Assembly (NCBI GenBank): GCA_902766695.1
Contig: CACXEY010000254.1
Location: 1 to 62,606 of the forward strand
DNA length: 62,606 nt
Reading direction: 5' to 3'
Origin: an uncultured bacterium
GTDB taxonomy: Bacteria; Verrucomicrobiota; Kiritimatiellia; CAIQIC01; Lenti-01
This document shows, piece after piece, positions 16,793 through 59,733 of this stretch. Numbering within the stretch: the stretch's first letter is position 1; the number at the start of each line of letters is the position of its first letter. Under the pieces are notes generated by a model, which did no database searches, was not told the DNA's origin, and was given only the letters and a program-made list of their open reading frames with translations. A program made the translations under genes and the position numbers.

Positions 16793-19700
16793 CTAACGGC
16801 CCATGTTGCGCGTCGGCGGCTGGTAGAAGTCTTCCGGGCTGTACGTCCAGTTCCACGTATCCCCCGCACCCTCTTCCTTTTTGCCCGAAATCAGCACGAT
16901 CATGTCGTTGGGGTGGATGGGCGTGTCCGTGGACGCGATTTCCGCGCGGTTCTTGTTGTAGCGCCACGTGCCGTTGGCATCGCAGTACATCGTCGTGTCG
17001 CCGCGGGGCTCCTTCGTCTCGGTATCGACCACGTACAGCTTGTCCGTCGTCGCATCCCACGGATTGCCCGCCTTCATCTTCCCGGACGTCGGCTCTCCGG
17101 TTTCCTTGTCGAATTCCACCAGCATCAGCTTGCTCGGGTGCACCGCCACCGGCAGGTTCAGCGACAGCAGGTTGTACACGCCCTTTCCGCGTACGACGGT
17201 CTGCTGGAACACCTGTTTCGACGCCGTACCGTCCCGTGCCCCCGGCTTGGCGGAGGACGTGGACGCGGTGGCGGCCACGGGCACCCCGTTCGTCGGCACC
17301 TGCATGATGGGATGCCACAGCATCGCCAGCACGGTCCGGTTCCTCCCGTATTGCGACTTCAGCTCCGTATGGTCCTTCCACCAGCCGTTGGTCTCCACCG
17401 TCCCGTTGTTCGTGGTGATGTTGGCCTTCGGCAGCAGGATTCCGAACGGCCTGGCGAAGAAGTTGGCGGGAAGGTCCTTATCCGTCACATCCGCACCCTT
17501 GTCATCGAACCACCGGAACTTCTTGTCCGCTTCCGTGGCCTTCTTGTCATAAGCGAAGAAGTAGGAACCGTTCGTCATCGTCGTCGTCCCGGACGAATAG
17601 AACTCGACTTTCGTCACGTCGTCGTCCGAAGCGGCCCCGTTCGTTGCCGCCGGCCACATCGACGGGTCCGTCCCGAAGACCCCGCGGAACGTGTTCGTCC
17701 ACGGCACGCCCTGCAGGCTCACGTAGTTGAACCCTTCGGACAGCACCACGTTGTTCATCGAGTACACTTCCATGCTCGCGAGCGGAATCTGCTTTTCGTC
17801 CGTCCCCGGCTTCGTGTCCTGCCACCGCCCCGTGTAGCTTGCGCGGTAGAAGCGCAGGCGTCCGGGCGTCGCGAGCCCCTCGTCCGCCTGGTAGTTCCAG
17901 TTCGTCTTGGACGTGCCGGAGTTGCCGGCGGTCGAGGCCATGTTCCACTGCTCCGTCCCCTTCTCGGTGAAGCTGGAGGCGTCGCGGTAGATCAGGTCGT
18001 ATTGCTTGTTCACGGCGTGCTTGAACTCGCCGGTCTTCGCGTCCTGCCCCGCCGCCAGCCAATGCAGCACCGCGGCCTTCGAAGGAGCACCCTCTCCGGG
18101 GACCGCCATCCCGATGTCCTCGAGATCGGCGGACTCGAGCATCCCGGAGATGGCCGCCGTCGTCCGTACCACGCCCGCGGTCACCGCGAACTTGATGGTG
18201 TTGTTCGTCGCCCAGCTCCACATTCCCGCGGGCCCTTCGTTGCCGGCCTTGTCCACGCCGACGATGATCACGATGTAGTGGTTGTCGAAGTCAAGGTCGT
18301 ACAGGCGGACGGACTGGTTCGTCGTCCCGACGTTCGCGGCGACCCGTCCCAGCGAATCGTACGCGGTGGACCGGCCGGTCCCCGTATCCTTCGGCGCCGT
18401 CGGATCCTGCACCGGGCTGTTCGTCATCACGAAGGCCCAGTTCGTGTAGTAGTTGGCGGCCGTCGGGTCGGACATGAACGTCTGGTACACCCAGCTCTTG
18501 GCCTCCACGTCGGGATTGTCGTCCGACGCGATCGCCGATTCCTCGTAGTTCGTGAAGTAGATCTTGTAGCTGTACCACGGCGACAGGGTTTCGTAGGCGC
18601 TGGCCTTGTACGTCGTCTCGATGTAGTTCGGGTCTGCCGGATCGTCCGGTCCCACTCCGTAAATCGGCCAGCTCAGGTCGAACTGCGTCGTCGGGTCGTC
18701 CGTGTTGTCCGGATTCGCCGTCAGGCGGCGCGGCGAACCGCCCGACACGTACCCGATCTTCGTCGGCTTCGTGATGTCGTATGCCAAAGGCACGTCGACC
18801 GGATCGCTGGCCAGACCGTCGCCCGGGCGGTCGTTGTCGCCGTCCACCGCGAACAGCTGGTACTTGCCGAAGCCCTGGTCCATCGTCACGGCCCCGAGAT
18901 TCGCCTTCAGCTTCTCGCCGTCGACGCTCGTCGTGATCTTCTTGCCGGCGTTCGTCGAAGTATGCGTGATGGTCGCATCCTCGCCCGCCAGGTGGTACCG
19001 CACCACGCCGGACTTCTTGGTGTCAAGTCCGGTCGGATCCTGGTCCGTCGCCGCCGTGAACCGCACGTTCACGTTGCCCAGGTTGTTCGTCCACGGCGCC
19101 GTCTCGCGCGTCATCTCCCCGACCGTCGTCACCGGAGTCCCGTTCACCTCGAGGCCCGTCGGCGGGTTCGGCCACAGGGTGTCGTTGTCGCGGACCGTGA
19201 TCTTGGGTCCGGCCAGCTGGGCATACTTCTGGTCCTCCTGGCGGTCGGCATCGGCGTCGTAGGCGTGGATGCGCAGCCAGAGGTCGCGGTAGTCCTGTCC
19301 GCCTGGCAGGAGGTTCCCGACGTCATCGTAGGTGAACTCGTCCCACGTCCACGTCGTGAACGAGACGGAGGCGGCCATCTTCGTCTGCCCGTCGGAGCTG
19401 CTCCAGCCGGTTCCGGGGAGCTGGTAGTGCGCCAGGGCGTTGGAGACCACGATTCCGTTGGTGGCGGCGGTTTCCCACGCCAGGTAGGTGTTGGTCAGCG
19501 TGATGGAGGAGGCGAGGGCGGAGGACGCGCCTTCCGTTGCCGCCGTCCCGCGCTTCACCCCCGTGTTGGAGCGGCCGCTCGTCCGGTCGGACGGGTCGAC
19601 CAGGTCGGCCGTGACGGCAAACTGCTTGCTCGCGGAGACCTCGCGCAGTTCTCCGTCGTAGATGGTGAACGCGCGGGTGGCGATGTCGTCGAGGGACCCG

Positions 19701-22700
19701 TTGTGGGCGCTCAGGCTGCCGCCCAGCGCGTAGTGCCCGTAATCCGCGGAGTCGAGGTCCTGCAGCGTCGCCCCGTCGGCCACGTTCGTCGCCACCAGGA
19801 TGCCCTTGAACTTGGAGGTGGACGCGTTCCGGTAGTGCGGCGCGCTCACGTCCTGGTCCATCACGCGGAAGTTGCCCACGTGGGCGATGCCGGTGGCGAG
19901 CGTGTCGCCCGCGCGGTCGTTGTCGCGGTCGGTCACGCCGGCGTACACCGCGTTCGTCACGATGGCGTCGGACGCGAATTCCGCCGCGTGGAGGGTGTAG
20001 AAGTCCAGCACCGCCTGCTCCCAGCCCACGGTGGCGCTCGGCACGTTGGCCTCGCCGAGGTCGCCCGTGTTCCCGGCATCGCGGGAATACCCGCCGGCGA
20101 GGGTGCCCGCCGCGTCGACGGTCCCGCCGGACAGGACGGTGGTCGTCCCGGCCTCGGCCCCGGTCGCCGGGTTCAGCTTGCGGAACTGGAGGTCGGTGAC
20201 GCGCCAGCCGCTGTAGTCATAGTAGTCGAGCGCGAAGCCGAGCTTGGAGTTTGCGCTGCTGCCGGCCGCCTCGGCGATCGAGTGGTCGCTCAGGGCCCAG
20301 ACGGAGGCCGCCCCGCTGTTGATGCGCTGCTTGGTGGGCAGGAGGGTGCCGTTCACCTTGACGCCGAACGGCCCCCCGAACTGGCTGCCCGTCTGCGGGG
20401 CCGCCTCGTCGTTGTCGTAGAGCCAGAACGCGTTGGTCACGGCCGCGGCGCGGGCGTCCGCGGTCCGGTCGTGGTCGTAGTCGTACACCCGGCTCACGAT
20501 CTTGTAGTGCTGGTTGTCCGGCTGCGTGCTGCCAGACTTCACCGAGAGCGGCATCCCCTTCGCCAGCGTCTCGGCGCTCAACCCCTGCGTCCGCACCTTC
20601 AGCTGGGCCGACACCATCTCGCCGTTCTTTCCGGTGCCCGGAGCCGAATTCACCATCGGCGCAAAGGCCGAGACGGAGATGACCACGCTGTCCACCTCCA
20701 GGCCCGTGCCGGCGGTGGTCTCCTCGGCAATCGATACCGCCACCTTGCCCACGCTCGAGTTCGCCACGGAAACCGGCCCCAGCGTGTATTCCCGCCAGGC
20801 CTTCGTCGCGCTGAACGTCTCCTCTTCGCCGATGGAGAGGGTGTCCCCGGCGGAGGTCTGGAAGTCCACGCCCAGCGTGAACCCGTTGGCGGCCCCGTCC
20901 GCCCCGGCGGCGAGCACCGAGCGGACCTTGGCCTGCACGATGACCGTCACGCCTTCGAGACCGCGTTCCGGCGCCGCCACGACGATGGTCTGCGAAGCGG
21001 AGGCCGCCTTCGAATCGCCACCGGGCAGCGAGAGCCAGTTCCGGCTTTCGGTCGTCCCCGCCACGATCTCCGCCCCGCTGGCCAGCGTCCAGCTGCCATC
21101 GTCGTCGGCGAACTGCGGATCCCCGCCGCTGGCCAGTTCCGCTTCCGCGTAGGCCAGTTCCACGAGGTTCGAGCTCCAGAACTCGGCCCCCTCCTTGGCC
21201 GACGCCGCGGGATAGTACACCGTGAAGTCCGGCACCCAGGCGTGGCAGTTGTCCGCCGAGTTCGAGGCGACCCACAGGCCGCTCCGCACCGTGTCGTACC
21301 CCGTCACCAGCCCGTCCTGGACCTCCAGCGTGTTCGTCCACGCCCCCTGGTTCAGGTCGTGGTCCGTCACTTCCTGGCCCTTCGGACCGGACAGGATTCC
21401 GTGCAGCTCCAGGTTGTTGATGCCCCAGTTGCCGTTGCCCGAGAACGTATCGTCCGCCTCGTCCTCGGCCACGCTCCCCGTCGCGCGCCAGCCGTACAGG
21501 CGGAACGTCTTCTTCTGCGTCCCCGTCGCCTCCACCGACTGCGAGAACACGATGCTCACCAGGTTCGTCGAAGCGAAGTACTGGCCTTCCCCGTTTTCTT
21601 CCTTGTCCACCACGACCGTCCCCAGTTCCGTCTCCACGGCGGTTCCCTTCACCGTCGTCACCTTCGGATTCCAGAGATTGAAGCCGGCATTGCCGTTGAC
21701 GCCGCTGTCGACGCCTTCATTGTTGGAAGCATACCAGCGAACCAGCATCTGCCCCGTGCGGGGGACCAGCGGGGAACCGGAAATCCTGATGTCGGAGAAA
21801 TTCTTGACATAGGCTTTCTGTTCGCCTGTTGCCGCGCTCTCCGACGGTTTGATGGTCGTCACATCCGTCCAACTCGCCCCGTTGTCCAAGCTGATTTGCA
21901 GTTTCAACGTCCGGTTGTCGGTGCGGTTGTACCGTGCGCCGGCATCATAGGAAATCGTCCCGGACGAAATCGAAGTCAGGGGAATCGAGACGGACTGCAC
22001 CGCAGCCGTGTGGACGCTGCTGGACCCCTTCAATGCCACCTGGTTCGTCGCCGTCAACTCGGCGCTGGTGGCGGCGCCGTTCTGCCAAACCGTCCATTTC
22101 TGGGAGGCACTCGGCGTATACACCGTCTCCGTCACCTCGCCCTGCACGGTCAGCGTGTAGCGGGTGGGGCCGTACGCGGTGACATAGCTCTTGAAGGTGA
22201 GGTTGTCGGCCAGCCAGTACGCCGTCTCGGTTCCGCCCAGCACCCACTCGAAGTACTTCGAGGAGGCCAGGTAGCTGGCGCCGTTCATTCCGCTTTCCAT
22301 GTAGGCCACGCCCGGATTCTCCGTCGCAGTGTAGTACAGCGTCGCCGAACCCGTCGTGCCGTTCGCGGCCTTGCTCTTCACGGCCACGGAGCCGTCCTGC
22401 ACGACCTGCGCGGTGCCCAGGGTCATCCCCTCGAAGGCCTGGAGCGCCCCGTAATGCGGGTTGCTCCCGCTTCCGATGGCATCTCCCTTCGAGAACGTGT
22501 CGAGCGCCAGCGTCCCGAACTTCACCATGTTCGTCCCGGTGCCCAGCAGGTTGGAGCGGGAGATTTCCGGCGCCGTCGCGTCGTCGTCGCTGAAGAGCAG
22601 GCGGCCGAAGGTGATTTCGGCGTCGGCCTGGTCGTTCGCGCGGTTGTCGTCGCTGTCCCAGGCGTGCAGCTGGACGACGTTCGTCACGCCGTCGCTGTGG

Positions 22701-41253: not shown

Positions 41254-41447
41254 CGGCGGGCCGAATCCGTCTCCCCGTTTGGCAGTTTGGTGGGGTGGTG
41301 GTTTGACGGCACCCCTGCCGCCTGCCGGGCCAACCGCTCCGCACGGTGCCGCCGCAGATACTCGCACACGCCGTGGAGGGTTCCCCCGCCCTTTTCCCAG
41401 AGGCGACGCCGCGGAGCCATGATTTCCTCGTAGATTTCCCTATTCAT
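41235..41447 (-). CDS. small PIN-associated protein A1 (70 aa), unknown family; putative antitoxin/partner
   Basis: MNREIYEEIMAPRRRLWEKGGGTLHGVCEYL.... It is a paralog of A2 and A3 (MN..DPV..E....R.K.WE..GGT..G). Its start overlaps the PIN-1 stop by 8 nt (ATGAATAG). Confidence 0.5.
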   Translation of the reverse strand: MNREIYEEIMAPRRRLWEKGGGTLHGVCEYLRRHRAERLARQAAGVPSNHHPTKLPNGETDSARRGAEGE

Positions 41448-42225: not shown

Positions 42226-42527
42226 CAACCTTCTCCCACCACGCCTTTCCCGGCCCCCGCTGCGTACCCCGGCGCATCCTCGCACACCATCATCGCGCCA
42301 TCAGCCAACGCGGCCGTTCCCTCGGCGGCACCGTCTCCCGACGCTCCGGCGCGTGTCCACGTCCCCGCCGCCTTCTTCCGCGCGACCTCGGCGGCGACGC
42401 GCGCGCGGAACTCCCGCGCGACCTCCTCGCAATGCCTGCTGTAGCCTTCCAGCGTCCCGTCGCATTCATCCCAGAGCTTGCGCCGGGCCTCGTGGATTTC
42501 CTCGATGACCGGATCGATGACGTTCAT
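42225..42527 (-). CDS. small PIN-associated protein A2 (100 aa)
   Basis: MNVIDPVIEEIHEARRKLWDECDGTLEGYSRHCEE.... ATGA overlap with the PIN-2 stop and TGATG overlap with the DUF2442 start. The tail MMVCEDAPGYAAGAGKGVV copies the linker that precedes PIN-1. Confidence 0.5.
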   Translation of the reverse strand: MNVIDPVIEEIHEARRKLWDECDGTLEGYSRHCEEVAREFRARVAAEVARKKAAGTWTRAGASGDGAAEGTAALADGAMMVCEDAPGYAAGAGKGVVGEG

Positions 42528-43024
42528 GGCATGGCCTCCAACTGGTCCTTGGGCGAAACGAGCAACGGACAGCGGTATCCGGCCTGTTCCACCACGCTTT
42601 GGATGAGAGGCAACTTCCTCTCGTTCACGATGTCCTGGAAATTCCAGCTCAGCAGGATGTCCGCCCCCCACACCGACGCCAAGGCGATGTGCGTAGCATC
42701 GTTGTCTTTTTTCCTCTTTACGGCTCCCGAGTCCAGCAACACGCCCGCCAGCACGTCGGCCTCGGCGCGGGGAGACCACGACTCCATCCCGGAAATCATC
42801 TTGCCCCTCCGCAACGCATCCGCAGCATTCTTTCCCTTGGAAATCTCGGCCCAAACGAGATATGACACCACGGGCCGCACCTTTCCCGACATTTGCCGCC
42901 ACCACGCCACCGACATCTCGTGCCTCTCCTCCTGCAACGGGTCATCCAAATCCTGTCCCGCCCAATGGCTGACGAAGCAGGCGTCCAGGTACACGACGGG
43001 CTTCTTCTGTCCATTCCCGCTCAT
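42524..43024 (-). CDS. PIN-domain (VapC-like) toxin PIN-2 (166 aa)
   Basis: MSGNGQKKPVVYLDACFVSHW...PVVSYLVWAEI...NDATHIALASVWGADILLSWNFQDIVN...GYRCPLLVSP. Acidic positions D/E/D/D are conserved. ATG 43024 follows a GGAGG-rich tract. Confidence 0.75.
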   Translation of the reverse strand: MSGNGQKKPVVYLDACFVSHWAGQDLDDPLQEERHEMSVAWWRQMSGKVRPVVSYLVWAEISKGKNAADALRRGKMISGMESWSPRAEADVLAGVLLDSGAVKRKKDNDATHIALASVWGADILLSWNFQDIVNERKLPLIQSVVEQAGYRCPLLVSPKDQLEAMP

Positions 43025-43264
43025 GCCGCCCCCTCCCCTCCGCGCCTCCGCGTCTCCGCGCGAGCCCTCTCCGCCCCGCCCGATCCCCTCCGGGCAAAGT
43101 CCATGCGGACAAGACCGCGCGGCCCTGTCGAGGCAAGCAGTTTTGGAATAGGATTGGGCATGGACTCTCTCCATGTAAATTTACCCCCTCCCCCATCCCC
43201 GCGCAACCCCGGCCCGCCCCCCACGCGGTAAAACGCTCTACCGGAAGGCGCCCTGCGGGCGCAG

Positions 43265-43481
43265 AGACGAGTGACGAGAGACGAGTGACGAGTTGCGGTG
43301 CGCCCGCTGCGCGGGCGGGATGGGAGGGAATGGGGCGCGGCTGGAAGCCGCACCTCCGGAAGTGGCGCGGAACTTCATCCACAAGTAGGGCGGAGCTTCC
43401 GGGGGTGCGGCATCTTGCCGCGCCTCGGCACGGCGCGCCCGAAGGCGCGCCCACCGCATCTTGTCACTTGTCACTTGTCAC
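43265..43481. repeat. imperfect inverted heptamer arrays flanking a GC-rich palindromic segment, between the giant gene 2 stop and the PIN-2 start
   Basis: (WGACGAG)x4 at 43265-43292 and (TTGTCAC)x3 at 43461-43481. Between them lie short palindromes such as gcgcgcccgaaggcgcgc. Confidence 0.6.
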
Positions 43482-43526
43482 TGCGCGCCCGCAGGGCGCG
43501 TCGCCGCGGCCGTGCGGCCGCCCCCC

Positions 43527-52500: not shown

Positions 52501-55500
52501 GCCCCGCCCGATTCCGCGCTGAACGCCGCCGGCTTCGGCAGCACGCTCAGGTTGTACGTGTGCTTCCGCTGCGCCGTGTCGCTGTGGTCCATCGAATAGA
52601 CCGCCGTCCCGCCGCCCGACACCGCGCCGAACCCGTACAGCGGCGGCGTCGTCACGCTCGTGATCTGGTGCAGCCCGTGCCACACCGTCACCGTGTCGCC
52701 TTCCTCGCGCCCGAAGTACGTCGCGCCGACCGCCGCCGAGAACGCCGACGCCGCCGGCGAGTCGCTGCTGGTCAGCAGCGACTGCGCGCTCTGGCGGTCG
52801 CCCACCGGCCGGCTCTTCACCGCGTTCGTCACCCAGTCGCCCCGGTAGGCCGTCGTCGTCTGCCCGTCCAACCACACGAACTCCGGCGGCACCCCGCCCA
52901 GCAGGTCCTCCCACTTGCTGCCGAACCGCACCTCGTCGAAATACACGTCGCCGATCTGGTCCGTGCCGATCGACCCCGCCTGCAGCTGGATGACCCGCAC
53001 GTTCGCCAGGTACGCCCCTTCCCAGTGCGCCATCCCGTTGCCGGACGGCTCCGTTGTCGGGAGCGGCGTCCCTCCCTCCACCTTGTACGACCACGCGTCG
53101 ACCGTCGCGTGCGCCGTCGACGTCCACTTCACCCGCGCCACCACCAGGTACGCATTGTTGGCCCCGCCCGTGTCGTTCAGCGCGTACAGCGTCCCGCTCG
53201 CCGCCGACCCCACCGAAGGCGTCCCGCCCGACGACGTCGCCGCCTCGATCCCCAGCTTCGAGTGCTTCACGCTCGCCCCCGTGTCGTCCTTCATCGTGCG
53301 GCCGATGAACACCCCCTTGCTCCCGTCCGTCGTGTCGATCAGCTTGAGCCCCGCCCACCGGTTCGGGTCGTTCCACGAATACGCCATCCGGAACGCCACG
53401 TAGAACGTGTTGTTGTACCCCCCGCCCCACGCGTCGCCGCCCGTCGTGCGCTCCAGCGTCCCCGCCCCGCCCTCGCCCGGGTTCGTCAGCTTCACCGCGT
53501 TGCCCACCGCCGTCGAGTTCGCGATCGTCCCCGCGATGTTCACCGTCGAAGCGATTTCCGTCGGCCGCACCGCCGTCCACGTCCCCGCGTCCGTGTGCCA
53601 CCAGTTCGCGCCCCACCCCTGGCCGCCCTTCCAGCTGTTCCCCGACGACGCTTCCGTCGTCCCGTTCGTGTAGCTGAACGTGTCCAGGTACTCCGACGCG
53701 TCGTACGACCCCGTCTCCACCGGATTCCCCGTCGCCGCCGTGTAGCTCGGCGAATACTCCGTCGAATTCTTCGCGTACGCGAAATACCCGTGCTGCGATC
53801 CCGTCGCCACCACGTGGTCCGCCGTGCAGTACGACCCCGCCGTCGCGTCCAGCACCGCGATCACCTCCGCGTTCCCCGCCGTCGCCCCCGGTGCCCTGCT
53901 CTTCAGCGTCTGTTCCGTGGTCGACAGCGTCGTCAGCGTCCCGCCCGACTTCGCGATGAACACGATCTGCCGCGCGTTCGCCGGCGCCAGCGCCCTCACC
54001 CGCACCAATTCCTTCCCGTCCGCGGCCGCCGTCAGCTCCGCGATGTTCTCCGGCACCGCCACCGTCCCGCCCAGCAGCGCCTCCCAGCTCGTCGCCACGC
54101 GCACCTCGTCGAAGTACACGTCGCCGACCGCACCCCCGTCGGTCGCCCCCGCCAGCAATCCGAACCGCGACAGGCTGCCCGGACGGCTCCCGCTGGGAAC
54201 CGTGTACGTCACGTCCCACAAATTCGCCGCCGGCTCGCCCTCCGGCACCGCGGCCCCGTGGTAGTACCCCTTCACCGAAATCTTTCCCGTCGAGAACTCG
54301 TACTTCAGGATCACCAGATATTCGTTGTCGGTGTCCCACTGGTACGGATTGATCTCGAACGAACCGGAGTACTCCTTGTGGTCGTACGCATCGATTCCCA
54401 GGTGGTAGTCCGCCGAACTGGACCAGATGTGGCCCGCCTTGATGGCGACCCCGCTGCCGTTCCCCAGGCCGATCTGGGCCCATTTCTTCGCCCCCTCGTA
54501 CTGGTAGCTCAAAATCGCCGCCGCGTAGATCGCCCCGCTCGACACCGCCGTGAAATCCCGTGTCGCTTCCGTCTGCCAGTTCGCCTCCCCCAGCGATGTC
54601 TTGATCCGGTTCCCCGTGTTGTCCGGATACTCCGTGTAGTTCGGGAACACCGGGATGTCGCTCCCCGACTGGCTCACGATGGTCGGCGCCGTCGTCGCCC
54701 CCGTGTCCCACGCCCCGCTCCACCCGTGCTCCCCGTTCAGCCCGTTCAGGCTCACCCCGTTCGTGTAGCTGAACGTGTCCACGATTTCCTCCGCCCCGAA
54801 CGACCCCGTCGTCACCGGCTTCTCCAGCACTGCCGAATACGCATTCGCGCTGCTGTAGGCGTAGATCTTGTACGTGTGGGTGCTCCCCGAAGCCACCACG
54901 TGCTCCAGGCTCGTCCCGGTGCTCCGGTAGATGACGTGCCCGCCCAGCGTCGTGCTTCCCACCGTGTAGGTGGACCCCTGCGTCGGGGCCGTCGTCCCGT
55001 TGTCCACGACCATCACCCCGCTCGCCCCGCTCGGCTTCGTCCACGAAAGCCGGACCATCGTCTTCCCGTCCGCCGTCGCCGACGCCACCGTCACCGGGTT
55101 CGCCAGCGTGTAGCCGTTAGCGCTTCCGTAGGCTGTCGTGTAGTAGTTCGCCGCCCCCCCCGACCCGTTGAATGAGTACGCCCGGAAGTAATACCGCGTT
55201 CCCGCCGAAAGCCCCGTCACTTCAAGCGTCGTGCTCGCATCCGACCCCGCGTACACCACGTATCCCTTCGAATCGATCCTCGTCCCGCTCCCGTACCTCG
55301 CGTTCGCCGTGTACCCCGTCCCGTCCGCGGGGGCCGTGAACGAGTTTGCCGCATTGGCCTGGATCAGCGTGTACCCCGACCCGCTCGCGCGCGTGATGCT
55401 CAGCGTCAGCGTCCCCGTTGCGTTTGCCGTGATGGCAATCTCCGGTGCCGCCGCCGGCTCCGTCGAAAACGTGTACCCGTCGCATGTCGTCGCCGTCGCC

Positions 55501-58500
55501 CGGTAGTTCTCCCGGCCCGTCGCCCCGTTGTACGCGTACGCCGCGAAATAGTAGTGCGTTCCCGGCGTGAGGCCGCTGACCGTCACCGTCGTCCCGCTCG
55601 CCCCGCCAGTAGACGCGTACACCACCTTGCCCGCCCCAAGCGACGACGACGAAGCGCTCGTGAAATCGAGATTGGCCGTGTACGTCGTCCCGTCCGTCGG
55701 GGCCGTGTAACTCGGTGCCGACTCGCTCTGGTAGGCCACGATCAGCGTGTACCCCGCGCCGCTGGCCCGCGTCAGGTTCAGCTTGATGGTGCTGTCCGTC
55801 CTGCTGTTCACGCTCAGCGTGGGGGAAGCCGACGGCTCCGACGCCAGCGTGTACCCGTTCGCCGTCGCCGCCGACGAATACGCCAGCGAATTCAGTGCCG
55901 CCGTCGCGTTCGCCGTCCCCTTGTAGGCGTACGCCCGCACATAGTACCGCGTCCCCGCCGCCAGCCCCGTCACGTCCACGCTCGTCCCGCTCCCCACGTA
56001 CACGATCTTCCCGCTGCCCAGCGTCGACGCGCTCCCGTACGCCGCGTTCCCCGTGTACGTCTTCCGCGCCGTCGGCGCCGTCGTCGGGTCGCTCGTGTAC
56101 ATCACCACCATCGTCCCCGCGCTCCCGCTCGCCGCCGACCAGCTGACGTGCAGCGTGTTCACCCCGCCCGGCTGCGTCACCGCCAGCGCCGTCGGCGCCC
56201 CCGGCGCGCTCGCCGTCGTCCGGAACGTCGCGTCCGCCGTGTACCCCGTCTTGCCCGCGTCGTTCACCCCGTACCCCCGGTAGTGGTACACCGTGTCGGC
56301 CGAAAGCCCCGTCACCGCCTTCGTGTACGCCCCCGCCGCCGGCGAAGCCACGTTCGCCGTGCTCCCGTAGCTCGTCGTCTTTCCGTACTGCACCCCCAAG
56401 GTCGAGATGTTCGGCGACCCGATGGCCCCCAGCGTCGCACCCAGCGTCGCACCGCTCGACGAGAAGCCCGTCGCCGTCGGCGACGAAAGTGTCGGAGTCA
56501 CCCCGTTCACCGTCACCATCACGTCCGTGTACTGCTCCGCGTACGGGGCGTCCGCCGCCTTCGTCACCCGCACCTTGATCGTTCCGCACGCCGTCACCGT
56601 CAACTTGTCCCCGCTGATCGTCCCGGCCCCCGTCCCGCCGCTCTGCACGCTGTAGCTGAACGCCCCGCCCACGCTGCTGCCGCCCACCGTTCCGCCGTTC
56701 CCCACCAGCGTCAGCGCGCTCCCCGTGTAGTCGTACTCGTCATCAGCCAACCCCACCGCCGTCGGCGTCGAAAACGTCGCGTCGGGCGTGTAGGACGTGC
56801 CCACCCCGTTGATGGCATACCCCCGGTAATGGTACGTCGTGCCCGCGGACAGCCCCGTCGCGCTGAACGTGAACGGCGTCCCCGTCGTCGGCGCCCCCGT
56901 CGTATTGAATTTCAGGGTTGCACTCGTCGTCGGGGCCGCGCTCGTCGACACCACCACGCCGTATTCCGTGATCGTGTCGTTCCCGTCGCTCGTCACCGTC
57001 GCCCCCAGCGTCGCCGTCGTCGGCGCGATGTTCGCCGCCGTCGGACTCGCCACCGTCGGCTCCCGCGCCGCCGCCGTCGGCGTGAAGGGGCCGTAGGTGT
57101 CCCATCCGGTATCGCTGGTGCTGGTTTTGGCGCGCGCCCTGACGTGAATGTAATACGCCGTGCCGGTGGTAAGCCCGGTTTTCGTGATAGTGGTGTTGTT
57201 GTTGACCGCAGTGGTGCAATCGGTACTTGCCGTGTGGCTGGAACTTGTGGTGACAGTGTAGTGGTATGCCGTGTTGTCCCCGTTCCCGTTCGGGTTTACT
57301 TTGAAGGTGACGCTGGTCGCATCATAGGCAACATCGGTGATGGTAGGGGCAACCGGTTTCGTCGTTGCACTAATGGTGGTATCCGCCGTGCTCCCGCCGG
57401 CCGAAGCCCTCACCGTAAAGTAATACAATGTTCCCGGAGTGAGGGAACTTGTCTTTTTGTTGGTTCCCGGAGTGATGCTGGCGGATGGCGTTGCAGGGTT
57501 GGAAGTGCCGTATCCGTACGTGTGGGTAGTGGCAGCGCCATTCACACCTGTTGCGGCCAAAATGGTAATGTAGTCCGTAGATCGCGCCACAACCGAAACC
57601 GAGGGAGCCGTCGGCAGCGTCGTCACCGTCTCCGTGACCGTCGAGCTGTTGTTCCCTCCCGCCGTCGCCATCGCGGTGATGGTGTACGTCGTCCCCGGCG
57701 AAAGGCTGCTGACCGTCACGGCGGTTCCCGCCGTGCAGGCCTCTGTGGGCGTCCCCGAGCTCGTGCCCACGATGTACTTGTACGTCGCCGCGCTCCCGTT
57801 CCCGTTCGCGTTGACCGTGAACTTGACGCTCGTGCTGCTCGGTGCCGAAACGCTCGTGATGGTCGGCGCCTTCGGCGATGTCGTTCGTGTCGTGTTGCCG
57901 CTAGTGGCGCTTGAACCTCCCGCCGTGGCCGTGGCTTTGATATAATACGTCGTCCCTGGTGTCAGACTGCTCTTCGTCACGGCCGTTCCCGCCGTGCAAG
58001 CGGTGTCCGGCGTCCCGGAGCTGCTCGTCCCAAAATAGTACTTGTACGTCGTTGCACTCCCGTTTCCGTTCGCGTTGACCGTGAACTTGATACTTGTGGA
58101 ATCCGAGGAATTCACCGTGATGGTCGGTGCCGTCGGCGCCGTCGTGAAAGAGGCGTTGGGATTGTTATAGGCATAAATATTCCCATTATTCCAATCATCC
58201 CAACCATGGAAATAGTATTCAACCGTTGTCCCAGGAGGAAATGCGCTACTGGGCGTATACTGCCAAATCGAGTTCCCGTCATCGTGCTTGATGTAGCTCA
58301 TGCTGTGGGTACCCCATGAGCCGTCGTTGATACCCACTTCGGCATGCAAACCCGAATAGTCTTGGTTCATCGCAATGGTGAAGGTTCCCTTGTCTCTTCC
58401 ACTATACGTCGTATAGCTACCGAAAATACCCATCCAAGATGGGAACGCCTTCGCCACACCCGCGCCCCCCAGCAGCGTCCCGGCGGCCAAAATCCAAGCG

Positions 58501-58691
58501 GCGGCGGCGGCGGTCCACCGTCGTCCCGAGCGCACCTTCCGCGATTGGGCATTGAGCATGGAGCATGGTGCATGGATGGAAGTGGATTGAGCCTTCATGT
58601 TCGTTTCCTCCGTCATGGCGGTGGGTGGAATCGTGGGATCGTTGAATCGTTGGATCGTTGAATCGTTGAAATTGTTCGAGAATGCGCTCAT
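43527..58691 (-). CDS. giant secreted multi-domain surface protein 2 (~5,054 aa), paralog of giant protein 1
   Basis: Uninterrupted frame with a signal peptide. There is an N-terminal beta-sandwich-like domain and more than 15 FN3-like modules, followed by a part collinear with giant protein 1. ATG 58691 lies 3 nt after the antitoxin stop and follows AAGGAG plus 8 nt. Alternative in-frame starts are at 58616, 58598 (GGAGGAAACGAAC-ATG) and 58559. Confidence 0.9.
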   Translation of the reverse strand: MSAFSNNFNDSTIQRFNDPTIPPTAMTEETNMKAQSTSIHAPCSMLNAQSRKVRSGRRWTAAAAAWILAAGTLLGGAGVAKAFPSWMGIFGSYTTYSGRDKGTFTIAMNQDYSGLHAEVGINDGSWGTHSMSYIKHDDGNSIWQYTPSSAFPPGTTVEYYFHGWDDWNNGNIYAYNNPNASFTTAPTAPTITVNSSDSTSIKFTVNANGNGSATTYKYYFGTSSSGTPDTACTAGTAVTKSSLTPGTTYYIKATATAGGSSATSGNTTRTTSPKAPTITSVSAPSSTSVKFTVNANGNGSAATYKYIVGTSSGTPTEACTAGTAVTVSSLSPGTTYTITAMATAGGNNSSTVTETVTTLPTAPSVSVVARSTDYITILAATGVNGAATTHTYGYGTSNPATPSASITPGTNKKTSSLTPGTLYYFTVRASAGGSTADTTISATTKPVAPTITDVAYDATSVTFKVNPNGNGDNTAYHYTVTTSSSHTASTDCTTAVNNNTTITKTGLTTGTAYYIHVRARAKTSTSDTGWDTYGPFTPTAAAREPTVASPTAANIAPTTATLGATVTSDGNDTITEYGVVVSTSAAPTTSATLKFNTTGAPTTGTPFTFSATGLSAGTTYHYRGYAINGVGTSYTPDATFSTPTAVGLADDEYDYTGSALTLVGNGGTVGGSSVGGAFSYSVQSGGTGAGTISGDKLTVTACGTIKVRVTKAADAPYAEQYTDVMVTVNGVTPTLSSPTATGFSSSGATLGATLGAIGSPNISTLGVQYGKTTSYGSTANVASPAAGAYTKAVTGLSADTVYHYRGYGVNDAGKTGYTADATFRTTASAPGAPTALAVTQPGGVNTLHVSWSAASGSAGTMVVMYTSDPTTAPTARKTYTGNAAYGSASTLGSGKIVYVGSGTSVDVTGLAAGTRYYVRAYAYKGTANATAALNSLAYSSAATANGYTLASEPSASPTLSVNSRTDSTIKLNLTRASGAGYTLIVAYQSESAPSYTAPTDGTTYTANLDFTSASSSSLGAGKVVYASTGGASGTTVTVSGLTPGTHYYFAAYAYNGATGRENYRATATTCDGYTFSTEPAAAPEIAITANATGTLTLSITRASGSGYTLIQANAANSFTAPADGTGYTANARYGSGTRIDSKGYVVYAGSDASTTLEVTGLSAGTRYYFRAYSFNGSGGAANYYTTAYGSANGYTLANPVTVASATADGKTMVRLSWTKPSGASGVMVVDNGTTAPTQGSTYTVGSTTLGGHVIYRSTGTSLEHVVASGSTHTYKIYAYSSANAYSAVLEKPVTTGSFGAEEIVDTFSYTNGVSLNGLNGEHGWSGAWDTGATTAPTIVSQSGSDIPVFPNYTEYPDNTGNRIKTSLGEANWQTEATRDFTAVSSGAIYAAAILSYQYEGAKKWAQIGLGNGSGVAIKAGHIWSSSADYHLGIDAYDHKEYSGSFEINPYQWDTDNEYLVILKYEFSTGKISVKGYYHGAAVPEGEPAANLWDVTYTVPSGSRPGSLSRFGLLAGATDGGAVGDVYFDEVRVATSWEALLGGTVAVPENIAELTAAADGKELVRVRALAPANARQIVFIAKSGGTLTTLSTTEQTLKSRAPGATAGNAEVIAVLDATAGSYCTADHVVATGSQHGYFAYAKNSTEYSPSYTAATGNPVETGSYDASEYLDTFSYTNGTTEASSGNSWKGGQGWGANWWHTDAGTWTAVRPTEIASTVNIAGTIANSTAVGNAVKLTNPGEGGAGTLERTTGGDAWGGGYNNTFYVAFRMAYSWNDPNRWAGLKLIDTTDGSKGVFIGRTMKDDTGASVKHSKLGIEAATSSGGTPSVGSAASGTLYALNDTGGANNAYLVVARVKWTSTAHATVDAWSYKVEGGTPLPTTEPSGNGMAHWEGAYLANVRVIQLQAGSIGTDQIGDVYFDEVRFGSKWEDLLGGVPPEFVWLDGQTTTAYRGDWVTNAVKSRPVGDRQSAQSLLTSSDSPAASAFSAAVGATYFGREEGDTVTVWHGLHQITSVTTPPLYGFGAVSGGGTAVYSMDHSDTAQRKHTYNLSVLPKPAAFSAESGGATKINLTWTPATAGGRTFDEVMVVRFATAGASTQTEAHLHPAQGTAYTVGDTFKYGSYTATVIYRGTGTGFTDTRLTPETTYYYAAYTVNNSYYSEPPSGGGAGRLNANATTAEGSSGTMPEVNGDGSDWTGAPAVAWNSSDTSDNEFVWNDKKGDLRSNTDDCYSADIDEFRVKADGEWVYFLLRLNGNVPAGKSVDLHKTYVSVGVDTRLSEGSTAMNWLGDESATELGGAYHGTAAERYASRQMAVHYVGGSENTWQVEMYAEDGARWYEPPTEGWQAAAAGTTDPCVEWRVSRADLGLGASGTAVTTGRFSVATFVNAQGWNQDTKATVDIDPGKSAAVDAMEIAPYGVNDKDANLGAWDEGLKDKTVNFWADVGFDKDGVVPNGLPNEPGFSGADTGHGSPTLNWTASTDTDAKGFVTGYLFELAEDSATLNGRDGGTENGSVLYRINLKGADNTSYRPQTTAAQFWWRVRARDNGGQLSAGTIRRYSVEGQKDMDGPKPELLYVGTQVADFLANTPDPETGIGYRDEVEAEGDALAVVDSVYSEGSKPTFGFVLQWSDDAGVYATNRSWDSSYTKTTRYDARVSQGLGTDGYTLGGGAGAFTWNILGEKGDGSPFGRVSPNWDLMLVDTKHTATFTGPSGWSTSGGYVWKRGASYKKTADTSVAAGKDYYTESGGTYTKVANPSGKNPSAEGWYEFLGWTYTKLSASESGLTSYYKMASGAEPNLQETGIHWVYEAHLELPTEEDPDKKIVTEGWTHVYDKDLPFLPSQTLWDTTATPNANLATCITNFVSQAFKLPAYDPDVSLYLTVSAEDGNTYGNGNTVPDGWIDNWYDDTPEGGVSHAHYSADTAESSGSCNDGPAYARNITTNRLILIPVRDDDSAGPEAATTAWAGANDGEPFAPSLVIATQAVTKAQAASWSAMYTNQKLLPRLDGTGQGVTYQLTDAMLGAPLTFLFNVYDQHITSGLKYGTAASESVKTWTWTNTAFRTRSWNSTGYPYSAVVSPGAANPKEQGWYVLAGGKYVPAEDTSVQAGTTYYTRSEDGWVTSEENVDKFNSDKSTIKYYKDDTKLHGPGTGDGTILAWEFGELTEASLGHLFGVPNVLDYIGHHSDGVTNLVQLHAWDCDNDRTGDQTEAEITFGTLMLTDDDATEPTSPGYALLGSGTNYVDFGALASWEWSTSGKPASWSTNTGLKGIDATEMSAWSVGSSGDTAITGDSVKWTERASSVPEGQDWSAMSRRYMSLEGGMQGATYQTAGGAKYFQFDVCGENGARWTADTLQFDNRVTAKGPTLYTLTVQEAANVTTLAAVTADGQKDPAWNVSGGLFEKANGILRFTLESTGGTASLASPSFQPNSNGRAMTRVQYRVGRIGGVKDGATLTVGYRIGSGTRTVVKTHASADFAESAANKFANYEVVSFDLPTDQAGDFTVTWEASGINGSQGFLLTDVSVVMQNSFNTEHPLVQDLLVEKAVDSSTDGSQETIKNVVMSWAGTENAEGTTWRYRLYAYGADGTGNWGINKIKLLGITMSPRGMDVTDGDLRHATWVNSLEVVDGEKSGWDTEKSGLWLKGDNAPAYVISYPEADAAGRAGTAVASGTFAYKDGKIRKAAYSVLPDGTFEADPTAWTLSGATIGTGSGTRERVLKLAGEDSAVSSATKGFDVSLGSIAAADVSGVTVSGGFEAKASVAEGSGGVNGLTVTVRLKDAGGNVLLAKTFEYAPVAAWRQLEIGPWTADNALVRKAEAEIAQTTAEGTELLVANVALQLATWGAPTGDFDNGEPGAKLELQTQEVAAGKTLKLSSELTGEGSKEYVLASTVHDYDRDRTDDALAVTIATGFELHDDDTQAPSLGAKFGGPVGMRLGNRSGLPYNASGTDVQVVVTDHQMDAAKRDGQSLAYLDIDGYDQSGWTTAALTLNYTEGGSAKSLAYDGADVTEGAAGLPSATNTFHYSLSTLWANTFVKNQFAAYTANMTVNATLTDQDDDRADDSLDTVSQLGFLKFMDNDTTAPAMRTSGSLKGMFIATNPPSGSIETALSGVSNKDWSAKSEYEVLTLTASDTASERLQLIYDGELCRSAPFYLMANVGDALQSGTGVSISGLQRGNAVSKSIQNGFNDTIAVSNTTMVLSNSATIVTNLATHFNEGYSSAFKTTRGGTAAAPQTWYWPTGMTTNEVGFLLPPESTSLDFRVLVEAFDSDTNRPSDQAHARLEDPTLRIRDDDTTAPQAPASVWLNGDAVASGEITRDNAPWKQSLSSVTVAWTEAVDPEPAGFGTAGNDIKVAGIAGYRLVAPGTTPGVAEGTDLTGTTTNTAEHKVTKTLTGLAIDQGFGNYQLFAVDKDADRAGDALAGAAANVPLALDFTKPTAVALPGGHGAGASTDAVDDPTTQMDITWTPSGVGPDDPTGDKTNYDKIPDAVKADAKAKGRAATDILSPWRTYKVYYREYDPQAVEAQAASEEMSAAQIILRDYVEADTFGSEAAGWLAVTNDAPIADPSTTQRKYSGLDEVSTPSVRVYDLDFDREYLFVVVGVDKAGNEGPVNDSSWATNNTIKFAVTQGLVRASADIAADIPASGDTGMKPINPQAKRGAALYWMAAGQKDGVGKVSKEYDLIYRDAPSFTEEGDEGWNLVGTVKTNWNYQTDGLDTVNDNLRFFRASYKGRWQGEKPLASEEVYSMNNVVLSEGFNYVSLQGVPYTNTFAGVFGTDTDMWPPNADSPASTNGAVVIEFYTAGDADHVRGSTKEQYFFASDGKWWKCENNAAVEDVTTKVLADHFFMRPFSINLPSGKKADGTDLPWWTEHNDPSITATKGTNRLNAILWHPILQVPPTNEVVAVASASTSSAKPGGRDGTASGALVFRQSVTATKGVYNTLSLNLPVSVHPKQLRLVATNAAGVPQPGRMKAGNWVDADKLYVIDTATKEIREKSTMYCDAEGTWRYNKNRLEVTGTPIHPNDMLVLISAGGNGEKGATVDWVWTYSPTDFYKPPTRHMGR
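58446..58559 (-). other. predicted Sec signal peptide of giant protein 2
   Basis: MLNAQSRKVRSGRRWTAAAAAWILAAGTLLGGAGVAKA / FPSW. Confidence 0.7.
58547..58574 (-). repeat. degenerate heptamer array (coding strand CATGCAC CATGCTC CATGCTC AATGCCC) in the giant gene 2 leader
   Basis: Plus strand gggcatt gagcatg gagcatg gtgcatg. It occupies the same position relative to the signal peptide as the perfect heptamer array in giant gene 1, with an ATG every 7 nt. Confidence 0.75.
58628..58667 (-). repeat. tandem octamer array (RRATCGTK x5) in the giant gene 2 leader
   Basis: gaatcgtg ggatcgtt gaatcgtt ggatcgtt gaatcgtt. It encodes FNDSTIQRFNDPTI if translated from 58691. Confidence 0.85.
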
Positions 58692-58713
58692 CTCTCATTC
58701 TCCTTCCGCGCCC
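58679..58713 (-). promoter_or_regulatory. conserved 35-nt cassette/leader junction (stop + Shine-Dalgarno + ATG), copy 2
   Basis: agaatgcgctcatctctcattctccttccgcgccc; one mismatch to 41219-41253. Confidence 0.8.
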
Positions 58714-58916
58714 TTCCGGGCCTCTTCCCACGGCACGAACTTCGCTTCGCCCGATTCGGCGAGGCGGCGTCTCTCCGCCAGCACCTCCGCATGCCACGCG
58801 GGAGGCTCGGCCGTCGCCTCGCCCTCGGCGAGGCTGTCCCAGAGCCATTCCATCGCGCGGAGTTTCTCCTCGCGGGACATCTTCCCGATTTCTTCCTGCG
58901 TTGCCAACATCGTCAT
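58695..58916 (-). CDS. putative addiction module component (Unstab_antitox / TIGR02574-like antitoxin), 73 aa
   Basis: MTMLATQEEIGKMSREEKLRAMEWLWDSLAEGEATAEPPAWHAEVLAERRRLAESGEAKFVPWEEARK fits the L..ER..L...LWDSL....P.WH..EL..R......G.....W pattern. ATGA overlap with the A3 stop. Confidence 0.7.
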   Translation of the reverse strand: MTMLATQEEIGKMSREEKLRAMEWLWDSLAEGEATAEPPAWHAEVLAERRRLAESGEAKFVPWEEARKGAEGE

Positions 58917-59239
58917 TCTCCTTCCCCGCCCTCCCGGGCCGAACCGCCCGTATCCCCGGCCCCGTACTCCGGCGAATCCTCGTGCACGCACACGGCATTC
59001 TCCGCGTCCTTCCGCCCTCCCCGCCTCCGCGGCGTCTGCCTGGACGGCGCACTCCCCGCAGGTTCCGCAGGCATCCGCCCCACGCCGCGCCACCTGTCCC
59101 CGTACAAGGCATACTCCTCCAATGCCTGCTGCGCGACCCTGTGGCAGTAGTCGAAAACACCATCCACCGTTCCGCCCCCTGCTTCCCAAATCTTCCGCCC
59201 CGTTTCCTCCAACTCGACCAAAACAGGATCGTCGTTCAT
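58913..59239 (-). CDS. small PIN-associated protein A3 (108 aa)
   Basis: MNDDPVLVELEETGRKIWEAGGGTVDGVFDYCHRV.... ATGA overlap with the PIN-3 stop. The tail VCVHEDSPEYGAGDTGG again copies the pre-PIN linker. Confidence 0.5.
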   Translation of the reverse strand: MNDDPVLVELEETGRKIWEAGGGTVDGVFDYCHRVAQQALEEYALYGDRWRGVGRMPAEPAGSAPSRQTPRRRGGRKDAENAVCVHEDSPEYGAGDTGGSAREGGEGE

Positions 59240-59733
59240 GGCAAGTCCTCCAGCAGCGGTTTGTCGGGCGAAACGAGTTGCGGGCACCGGCATCCGGCCC
59301 GCTCCACCACGCTCTTGATGAGGGGCAGCTTCCTCTCGTTCACGATATCCTTGAAATTCCAGCTCAACAAAACGTCCGCCCCCCCTGCCGACGCCACGGC
59401 GATATGCAACGCGTCGTCCGGTTTGGACATCTTCACGCCCCCATTGTGCAACAATTCCCTGGCCAACGCCCTTGCCTTCGCGTCCGCCACCCAGACTGGC
59501 AATCCCGAAACAACCCCCATCCGCCGTGCCGCCCCATCCGCCGGCCCATCGGAGATTTCGGTCAGCACGACCTCCGACACCACGGGCGTCACTTTTCCCT
59601 CCATGCGCCGCAGCCATGCAACGGATTTCTCGTGCTTCGCGAGCTGCGCCGGATCTCCGAGATCCTGCCCCGCCAAATGGCTGACGAAGCTCGTCTCCAG
59701 GTACACGACCGGCTTCTGGACGGCTTTCGTCAT
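59236..59733 (-). CDS. PIN-domain (VapC-like) toxin PIN-3 (165 aa)
   Basis: MTKAVQKPVVYLETSFVSHLAGQDL...PVVSEVVLTEI...DDALHIAVASAGGADVLLSWNFKDIVNERKLPLIKSVVERAGCRCPQLVSP. Closest to PIN-2. Confidence 0.75.
   Translation of the reverse strand: MTKAVQKPVVYLETSFVSHLAGQDLGDPAQLAKHEKSVAWLRRMEGKVTPVVSEVVLTEISDGPADGAARRMGVVSGLPVWVADAKARALARELLHNGGVKMSKPDDALHIAVASAGGADVLLSWNFKDIVNERKLPLIKSVVERAGCRCPQLVSPDKPLLEDLP

Follow-up and report, generated by a model that had tools for sequence, protein, structure and literature searches.

Why should small toxin-antitoxin (TA) genes be chained by overlapping stop and start codons to the 5' ends of genes of 15-23 kb? This question is raised by contig CACXEY010000254.1 (GenBank assembly GCA_902766695.1) from an uncultured Kiritimatiellia bacterium, all 62,606 nucleotides (nt) of which were analyzed and are called the window here. 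Its minus strand carries two units, array A and array B, in each of which small cassette genes, among them genes for PIN-domain toxins and their partners (A), lead into a giant gene for a secreted protein. A preliminary description, made from the DNA letters, had read these units as two tandem copies of a translationally coupled operon. The comparisons reported below suggest that promoter-less selfish cassettes probably accumulated by recombination at duplicated 5' ends of the giant genes, where they would be read from the giant-gene promoter and where the chain of open reading frames (ORFs) stayed unbroken.

First, the architecture of the window was examined. The nine minus-strand junction strings of the preliminary description were read directly and were all found exactly as claimed (Table 1), and the same was true of the 35-nt block common to both units, with its single mismatch, and of the unit spans of 16.2 kb (59733-43527, 16,207 nt) and 26.2 kb (43024-16793, 26,232 nt). 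Pfam profile searches also bore out the gene identities that had been given, with PIN-1 and PIN-2 assigned by homology. However, DUF2442 and PIN-1, which had been listed as separate genes, form one 261-codon ORF (41440-42225), and an extra 27-codon ORF (43021-43104) was joined to PIN-2 by another ATGA. A Shine-Dalgarno (SD)-like motif (GGAG/GGAGG) was present at -11 to -14 of 11/11 window starts, within the preceding ORF, and the combination expected for translational coupling, a stop/start overlap with an SD in the upstream ORF, was found at 9/9 window junctions. The tightness of these junctions exceeds chance. There are indeed two units, but not a recent tandem duplication: PIN-2 and PIN-3 showed 70% nucleotide identity and the two giants about 36% amino-acid (aa) identity across their C-terminal halves, so the units are old paralogues.

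Next, the sequence between the cassettes was compared with the 5' ends of the giant genes. The 37-codon leader ORF between A1 and DUF1016 is not a dedicated coupling device but an internally deleted relic of a giant 5' end including the signal peptide; in pairwise alignment it matched, end to end, the 109-codon linker of a related array (L004) save for a 236-nt internal deletion. Translations of all array ORFs showed that an ORF of 37-186 codons recurs between cassettes, and such linkers separate the cassettes in every array. The linker ORF begins M-[KNS]-[AW]-x-[FI]-F-x-x-[VF]-F and ends ..ARWAAVAAVAAGAWLxGAREAEVA before its stop; it consists of an N-terminal leader and a complete signal peptide, halting at the A-x-A cleavage site. 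The giants open with the same leader and signal peptide (..LVARWAAVAAVVAGAWVGGAREAEA/ETIYW in giant 1, and likewise in the giants of L006, L004, and L009). At the DNA level, the homology of linkers and giants runs from about 36 nt 5' of the ATG (GGATTTCGCCCGGAAGGGCGCGGAAGGAG, which holds the SD) to ..GCGAGGGAGGCGGAGG at the cleavage site, past which the giants continue into the mature protein and the linkers pass through TCGCGTAA-GTG into a cassette. A degenerate linker also lies just 5' of the first gene of each array. An array is laid out, in order, as promoter, (linker, cassette) repeated, and a final linker fused to the mature giant. As proteins the linkers are neutral, with a ratio of nonsynonymous to synonymous substitution rates (dN/dS) of 0.8-1.07.

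The shared sequence reaches into the cassettes at both of their ends. The first 7 or so codons (M-x-G-x-V/L-Q-K) are common to the unrelated cassette first genes PIN, DUF1016, and ORF6N, and autonomous PINs elsewhere are without this extension. Unrelated last genes (A, DUF2442, ORF6N, Unstab) run into the same untranslated region (UTR) block and end ..ARKGAEG(D/E).. before the stop, and many last-in-cassette genes have the tail ..VCEGDAPGYGAG in common. Separately, unrelated proteins encoded last in their cassettes (A, DUF2442, and the ParE-DUF2442 linker) were seen to carry a short motif, ..[AM]M[VC]VCE[GD]xAP[GE]YGA.., in their C-terminal tails. It lies at 42260-42300, 41935-41975, and 58955-58995 in the window, at cassette ends of L004, L006, L009, L138, L139, and L151, and also between DUF2442 and PIN-1 in the fusion ORF; autonomous A proteins are without it. 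It may belong to the duplicated UTR, act as a degron, or serve as a peptide that binds PIN.

Cassette turnover was apparent when orthologous positions were aligned. The stretch 42198-41150 of the window (DUF2442-PIN-1, A1, and the start of the linker) was 90% identical to L004, and between flanks of 90-93% identity the window has DUF1016 and L004 has PIN170 and A85. L151 has PIN-2/A2 (93% and 90% aa identity) followed by other cassettes and a different linker type. In L004 the Unstab_antitox orthologue is followed by a ParE/RelE-like toxin, which the window copy lacks; the window joint EEARK/GAEGE is an 11-nt microhomology (GGCGCGGAAGG) with the UTR block, and the toxin has been deleted here. 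In both L004 and L006, DUF1016 is cut short at one and the same residue, and a PIN cassette is joined to it there. The fusion of DUF2442 to PIN, which was confirmed in independent assemblies and was also present in L006 (263 aa) and within a 393-aa ORF of L004, looks like a linker deletion. After all these rearrangements the ORF chain was unbroken. The arrays thus appear to bear the signature of recombination-driven turnover with selfish cargo, and not that of a designed regulatory unit.

Several other rearrangements were observed. In L004 (8526-9925) a ParE/RelE-like toxin is fused in the 393-codon ORF to DUF2442 and PIN. A 2.9-kb block of L013/L014 (PIN-A, DUF4160-DUF2442, AAA_14/DUF4143) lies between 340-bp direct repeats that are 86% identical and that each carry a promoter-like TTGCAC-N16-TATTAT; L016 (856-1963) is without the block found in L014 (2983-6540) and has kept one hybrid repeat. 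L011 was 99.9% identical to L009 until 10 nt into the ORF6N cassette, within the 5' adaptor (L011 5291-5678; L009 6946), and then enters an opposite-strand peptidyl-tRNA hydrolase gene, which may be a cassette-junction rearrangement or an assembly chimera.

The recurrence of the arrangement was then examined. The exact proteins of the window were present on rumen metagenome contigs, with named homologues labelled Kiritimatiellae, and close PIN homologues formed 29 clusters among 5.8 billion proteins. Ten distinct arrays were collected (window A and B, L004, L006, L009/L010, L100, L102, L138, L139, and L151), and a giant ORF closes every one whose length allows a judgment, the terminal ORFs being at least 1,400 to 8,200 codons. 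Since ten arrays end in giant ORFs, the lack of recurrent synteny that the preliminary description had named as the mark of chance juxtaposition was not what was found. The chains comprised 10 small genes in L004 (terminal ORF of 1124 codons, then one of 6509), 11 in L006 (4 PIN domains; 8202 codons), 17 in L009/L010 (4585 / 5277 codons), a PIN-A chain in L100 (at least 2383 codons), and a PIN-A-linker-PIN-A chain in L102 (at least 1416 codons). Of the 66 junctions in nine arrays, 53 are overlaps, 41 of them of exactly 4 nt, and at another 6 the genes are 0-3 nt apart (59/66 in total). As a reverse test, JGI metagenomes were searched, blind to cassettes, with a 20-nt pattern from the signal-peptide coding DNA of the giants. 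The search gave 74 matches, including 5 true relatives, and 5/5 of these had PIN cassettes upstream; ORFs of at least 1,600 to 3,600 codons lay downstream in 4/4 loci long enough (L107, L138, L139, L151).

Outside this lineage the same toxin and partner behave differently. In hundreds of other genomes PIN and partner form an ordinary two-gene unit that stands on its own, and in 80 GTDB loci with 30-38% identical PINs, giant ORFs downstream were rare and unchained; therefore, the cassette-giant wiring is lineage-specific. Two loci were rejected as further cases: in L036 an opposite-strand gene intervenes, and L026 has autonomous modules with an unrelated giant bearing an ordinary signal peptide. 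The partner, a protein of 55-75 aa with the motif DPIV.E[VI]R..R..HA..[FY].YDL, lay 3' of PIN in about 75 of 83 loci of unrelated phyla and mostly overlapped the PIN stop. More than 554 matches to the module were seen over many phyla in GTDB species genomes (L017, L020-L099; PIN at about 10001-10480 in most). Full-text literature searches, whose coverage is incomplete, returned no account of giant genes with TA cassettes wired to them, and none of any TA system in Kiritimatiellota.

The identity of the cassette genes was analyzed by profile and structure searches. The AlphaFold2 model of PIN-3 (predicted local distance difference test score 92.8) had only VapC proteins among its top 25 PDB fold matches. 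This likeness came from the fold search, as a PIN profile gave no significant match to PDB sequences. PIN-2 and PIN-1 matched PF01850 weakly, yet they are clear homologues of PIN-3, and E/D, S53, E59, D107, and N126, which include the conserved acidic active-site residues, were invariant or nearly so across 26 PIN homologues. A1-A3 have an N-terminal motif in common and matched no Pfam or NCBIfam family; A3 carries an array-specific C-terminal tail (..VCVHEDSPEYGAG..GGEGE), and A1 terminates ..DSARRGAEGE inside the conserved UTR/SD block. Like VapBC modules, these pairs combine a toxin of VapC-like fold and conserved acidic residues with a small co-conserved partner that overlaps it by a few nt. 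Unlike them, the toxin comes first, and the partner is unrelated to the known DNA-binding VapB antitoxins. In VapBC modules the antitoxin also autoregulates the module's own promoter, for which the modules of this lineage leave no room: PIN-1 of the window has no non-coding DNA ahead of it, and PIN-2 and PIN-3 have nothing but the array head that they share with the other genes. PIN and its partner thus appear to be an uncurated, widespread, toxin-first VapC-like TA family.

DUF1016 gave full-length DUF1016_N and YhcG_C matches (about 1e-40 and 1e-50) and was assigned to the PADLOC candidate defense family PDC-S02 (9.5e-133); it was the only gene recognized in the PADLOC scan, in which PIN and A genes are not represented. 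The window has DUF2442 without a DUF4160 toxin gene, and complete DUF4160/DUF2442 pairs were present in L009, L011, L014, and L138. DUF4160/DUF2442 is an experimentally identified TA pair (dhiTA; PMC8198452). The cargo is therefore typical of selfish and defense elements, with the DUF4160/DUF2442 pair, DUF1016 of PDC-S02, and a PIN/A module that is autonomous elsewhere. All of the cassette genes compared were under purifying selection (dN/dS 0.09-0.34; 0.20 for PIN-3 against L100). The GC content at third codon positions (GC3) was 0.75-0.87 in cassettes versus 0.93-0.95 in housekeeping genes of the host, by which measure the cassettes appear to be of foreign composition. The whole window was also scanned against Rfam and for tRNAs, with no matches.

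Promoter-like signals were found at the array heads. A palindrome (GGTAAAnCGnTTTACC) lies about 200-250 nt 5' of the gene that opens each array, and some 20 nt further on comes TTGCGC/TTGCAA-N16-18-TATAGT/TACAGT/TAAAT. The palindrome had 3 sites in the window versus 0.37 expected, and it occurs once per array head in L001-L003, L006, L007, L009-L011, L102, L103, and L105. The putative motif of array A, recognized by conservation and below the threshold of the generic scan, matches in position TTGCGC-N16-TATAGT in L006, L100, and L102; the head of array B was 79% identical over 319 nt to that of L009. The module of palindrome and -35/-10-like elements was found neither inside any fetched array nor between cassettes and giant. 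In the two cassette regions of the window, a generic sigma-70 scan, which is uninformative for this phylum, gave no promoters, and terminator-like sites were no commoner than in shuffled sequences. RNA folding of six junction and head segments gave z-scores of -1.75 to +1.3, and no structured element was found.

Other sequences near the heads were also noted. Tandem repeats of 7 or 14 nt lie 5' of both array promoters (43263-43293, 43460-43482, 59997-60019), namely GTGACAA x3.3 and ACTCGTC / CGTCACTCGTCTCT, and similar CTTGTCACTTGTCAC repeats lie 5' of the L009 array. The third copy of the palindrome, GGAAAAACGGTTTACC (2356-2425, plus strand), is followed by TTGCCA-N17-TACAGT in the same -35/-10 layout and precedes a small membrane ORF (2496-2732) and a ComEC competence gene (2770-6126; PF03772, 1.8e-33). 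One regulator may act on both the competence operon and the arrays of the giants.

The 5' ends of the giants were analyzed in the same way. In both giants the predicted signal peptide does not begin before residues 44-45, and an internal ATG with a strong SD lies 72 and 93 nt 3' of the coupled ATG (39955 and 58598, respectively). Because of the late signal peptide and these internal starts, the coupled ATG is not the only possible start of a giant. Non-triplet tandem repeats were present within the 5' coding regions (7-nt x 6.4 at 39905-39949; 8-nt x 5.4 at 58628-58670). Non-triplet repeats at such positions are a hallmark of phase-variable surface genes. Repeat length was identical among contigs of the same loci, which likely come from one sample, and the L004 orthologue had the same copy number. 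Each 7-nt unit holds an ATG, the repeats lie between the coupled ATG and the signal peptide, and further repeats were seen at 58544-58576. The leaders were presumed to resemble the extended signal peptide region (ESPR; MN+hF+hhF), and membership was rejected, as five leaders gave no Pfam match at E up to 10 and no ESPR profile match was found. The C-terminal halves of the giants are large and unannotated.

The first 3 kb of the giants (37028-40027, 55692-58691) had a cassette-like GC3 of about 0.79-0.82 and the remaining 12-20 kb a GC3 of 0.93-0.95, and the N-terminal parts of giants 1 and 2 are not homologous to one another; these two observations suggest that the entire 5' end of the locus may be exchanged horizontally. 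In L004 (11219-18218) two genes take the place of a single giant: one of 1124 codons, which has the leader and the signal peptide, and, 10 nt on, one of 6509 codons, which has no signal peptide.

Table 1. Coordinates of the features of arrays A and B in the window
Feature	Position	Strand	Remarks
Palindrome GGTAAAGCGGTTTACC, head of array A	59971..59986	-	candidate operator/promoter-upstream element
Promoter-like TTGCAA-N18-TACAGT	59923..59952	-	about 190 nt 5' of PIN-3
PIN-3, VapC-like PIN toxin	59236..59733	-	165 aa; PF01850, 25.9 bits (gathering cut-off 23.6)
Overlap PIN-3/A3	59236-59239	-	ATGA
A3, PIN-3 partner	58913..59239	-	108 aa; dN/dS 0.34
Overlap A3/antitoxin	58913-58916	-	ATGA
Orphan Unstab_antitox, Phd-type addiction-module antitoxin	58695..58916	-	PF09720, 1.5e-16; dN/dS 0.14
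Junction antitoxin/giant 2	58689-58697	-	TGAGAGATG
Terminal linker, array A	58445..58722	-	UTR/SD block 58680-58722; coupled ATG 58691; 8-nt tandem repeats 58628-58670; internal SD and ATG 58598; signal peptide about 58559-58448
Giant gene 2	43527..58691	-	5054 codons; secreted fn3-rich protein; same start called in independent assemblies
GC-rich palindromes just past giant 2 stop	43432..43525		terminator-like, no T tract
Palindrome GGTAGAGCGTTTTACC, head of array B	43227..43242	-	
Promoter-like TTGCGC-N16/17-TAAAT	43179..43206	-	about 155 nt 5' of PIN-2
Degenerate head linker	43021..43104	-	27-codon ORF MDFARRGSGG..GEGAA; CGCGGAGG 8-nt repeats
PIN-2	42524..43024	-	166 aa; 93% aa identity to L151; dN/dS 0.19 vs L102
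Overlap PIN-2/A2	42524-42527	-	ATGA
A2, PIN-2 partner	42225..42527	-	100 aa; tail ..MMVCEDAPGYAAG; dN/dS 0.22
Junction A2/DUF2442	42223-42227	-	TGATG
DUF2442-PIN-1 fusion ORF	41440..42225	-	261 aa; DUF2442 antitoxin-type domain (5.8e-13), tail motif MMVCEGEGPEYGA, PIN domain; dN/dS 0.29
Junction PIN-1/A1	41440-41447	-	ATGAATAG
A1, PIN-1 partner	41235..41447	-	70 aa; 90% nt identity to L004
Junction A1/leader	41229-41237	-	TGAGAGATG
37-codon linker relic	41118..41231	-	leader and end of signal peptide; 236-nt internal deletion
Junction leader/DUF1016	41116-41120	-	TAGTG
DUF1016/YhcG PD-(D/E)XK nuclease cassette	40024..41118	-	364 aa; DUF1016_N and YhcG_C; dN/dS 0.09
Overlap DUF1016/giant 1	40024-40027	-	ATGA
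Terminal linker, array B	39790..40027	-	92.6% identical to 5' end of L004 1124-codon gene; coupled ATG 40027; internal SD and ATG 39955; 7-nt repeats 39905-39949; signal peptide about 39898-39790
Giant gene 1	16793..40027	-	7744 codons; secreted; fn3, Reelin-subrepeat, MAM, and PATR-like matches

We propose that each unit would be one long operon of a rumen or gut Kiritimatiellae bacterium, in which the stretch from promoter to giant would have been colonized by promoter-less TA and defense cassettes (VapC-like PIN with A; DUF4160/DUF2442; Unstab_antitox with or without ParE; DUF1016; ORF6N). The linker is a copied giant 5' end, made up of the last 36 nt or so of the UTR with its SD, the N-terminal leader, and the signal peptide as far as the cleavage site. 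As direct repeats, the linkers would allow cassettes to be gained, lost, and exchanged by homologous and microhomology recombination, with some deletions fusing ORFs or truncating linkers, and TA cassettes would resist loss through addiction. An untranslated gap before an ORF of 15-23 kb would presumably be polar, so the survivors would be those arrangements that keep ribosomes on the transcript by a stop/start overlap and an SD in the preceding ORF; the end of the signal peptide would work as a junction because it is SD-rich. The cassettes would ride on giant-gene transcription, and the giant would be expressed by read-through of the array. The comparisons above show the architecture and its recurrence, the likeness of the linkers to giant 5' ends, the turnover of cassettes, the pattern of selection, and the place of the conserved promoter-like motif; co-transcription, translational coupling, the recombination route, and the polarity of gaps are inferences.

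Several points weigh against this explanation. The preliminary description had stated that the junctions leave no room for a promoter and that the units look like operons. The promoter-like motif was found solely at array heads, which supports the operon reading indirectly, but promoters within coding sequence are possible, since the empty generic scan is uninformative for this phylum, and the internal SD and ATG mean that a giant could be translated independently of coupling. Nor are all arrays tightly chained: that of L013/L014 has gaps of 60-470 nt and promoter-bearing repeats. All arrays come from metagenome assemblies, and those of the window were confirmed only by re-assemblies of apparently one sample. 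Insertion is the presumed direction of change, since no cassette-free member of the giant family was seen among the loci examined; when profiles of leader and giant N-termini were run against the 5.8 billion proteins, the matches were 17 short linker ORFs and zero giants, and the search was unusable for finding cassette-free giants. In addition, simple homologous recombination leaves unexplained how new, unrelated genes acquire the 5' adaptor M-x-G-x-V/L-Q-K and the 3' tail.

A wider claim is that the giant 5' end serves as a repeated attachment and expression module of an undescribed cassette platform of gut and rumen Kiritimatiellae, without integrase or attC, which would capture and shuffle promoter-less TA and defense cassettes and express them as a single translational chain ahead of the giant, and whose addiction cassettes would stabilize the tandem giants; this we offer tentatively, as possible but not probable. 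Its last element, one of the possible meanings named in the preliminary description, can also stand alone as an anti-deletion guard, in which addiction cassettes would kill segregants that lose the costly tandem giants. The tandem giants have a common 5' signal-peptide region and a 3' half of 65-75% identity, and the linkers demonstrably recombine. Array B lies exactly between the giants, and a linker crossover that removes giant 2 would also remove two or three PIN/A modules. This position between recombination-prone giants lends the idea some plausibility, and TA cassettes are known to stabilize chromosomal integron arrays. However, the internal linkers are signal-peptide relics without a gene body, as if giant bodies had been lost and cassettes kept, and cargo other than TA (DUF1016, ORF6N) and orphan or truncated modules are common. 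We consider the guard unlikely as the explanation of the arrays.

Separate transcription, in which the promoter of the giant is buried in the last cassette or linker and the chain has no consequence for expression, appears less likely still. The internal starts described above would suit it, the T-rich conserved leader start could hide promoter elements, and L014-type arrays have promoter-like repeats ahead of each cassette block. Against it, no cassette-giant junction has the palindrome/-35/-10 module, junction terminator-like sites are at chance level, and stable structures were not found there. Moreover, between the coupled ATG and the next start the linker ORFs have stayed open, even though they evolve neutrally and have suffered internal deletions, which is hard to explain unless translation through the linkers matters.

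The arrays also resemble chromosomal integron arrays, such as Vibrio superintegrons, in that co-oriented, apparently promoter-less cassettes follow what in these arrays would be one upstream promoter; all array genes are co-oriented, and both systems are TA-rich, have conserved sequence between variable cassettes, and turn over from strain to strain. A site-specific platform of this kind, in which a recombinase would insert cassettes where the signal-peptide coding region ends, with the junction blocks as its attachment sites, would account for the fixed position of the 5' boundary (..GGCGGAGG/TCGCGTAA-GTG-nnn-GGn-Ann-nTC-CAG-AAR), for the first 21 nt or so common to unrelated first genes (PIN, DUF1016, ORF6N), and for the 3' boundary block of about 36 nt after A, ORF6N, and Unstab. 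However, no integrase family such as IntI and no integrase or transposase domain was found among called genes within 10 kb of any array, and no integrase family in the scanned window ORFs. The linkers had no significant, attC-like inverted repeats or structure, and junctions overlap or leave at most 3 nt in most cases. The rearrangements that were observed lie in short direct repeats rich in GGAGG, and selection for the SD sequences offered by the end of the signal peptide may equally account for the fixed position. In integrons the attC sites are intergenic, whereas here the repeat is the 5' end of a resident gene, cassettes are joined by stop/start overlaps, and the array is wedged between a promoter and a terminating giant structural gene. 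We regard a recombinase-driven platform as improbable.

Regulatory co-option, meaning cleavage or tuning of the giant mRNA by the PIN RNases, or a role of the cassette as a dedicated translation-coupling leader, had been suggested on the first reading of the locus. It is consistent with the strict, recurrent cis-linkage and the VapC-like PIN fold, and is nevertheless very unlikely. The cassette content differs freely among arrays, even at orthologous positions, and because it is so freely interchangeable, control of the giant mRNA by PIN is not favored; hundreds of unrelated genomes that lack giants carry this PIN/A family as an autonomous module, and the arrays contain orphan antitoxins and truncated genes. 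Finally, chance juxtaposition or an assembly artefact can practically be dismissed, for although repeat linkers could mislead assemblers and the supporting contigs of the window look like one-sample re-assemblies, the ten arrays have differing cassette orders and come from different studies, assemblers, and sources (ENA, JGI, NCBI, Logan).

The proposed accumulation of selfish cassettes at copied giant 5' ends can be set beside two other known systems. The CdiA-CT/CdiI and Rhs orphan arrays likewise have a giant secreted-protein gene and a row of toxin/protector pairs, with a fragment of the giant gene before each pair that gives homology for recombination. Those orphans lie downstream with the C-terminal pre-toxin region and swap the toxin tip of the giant protein, whereas the cassettes of the Kiritimatiellae arrays lie upstream with the N-terminal leader and signal peptide and encode TA proteins of cytoplasmic type in ORFs of their own, which a stop or a change of frame sets off from the signal peptide and which are no part of the giant protein. 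Defense and TA islands and minimal mobile elements are alike in that TA and candidate defense genes (DUF1016, ORF6N, AAA_14) are swapped within conserved flanks; here, in contrast, the hotspot would be the transcribed and translated leader of one particular family of genes, direct repeats of this leader inside the array act as the flanks, and the ORFs stay continuous throughout. The arrays thus appear to be cassette arrays that lack the defining features of integrons and of CdiA-CT/CdiI and Rhs orphan arrays.

If the units are co-transcribed, they would represent a third way to build expressed cassette arrays, besides integrons and the orphan arrays of polymorphic toxins, and the building block would be the duplicated translation-initiation and secretion leader of a resident gene. 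They also provide testable material, in the form of defined junctions, a candidate operator common to the competence operon, an uncurated PIN/partner family, and variants with and without particular cassettes. If true, the explanation proposed here would join three topics, namely where selfish TA and defense genes settle, how genes of 15-25 kb are expressed, and how such genes are retained or lost.

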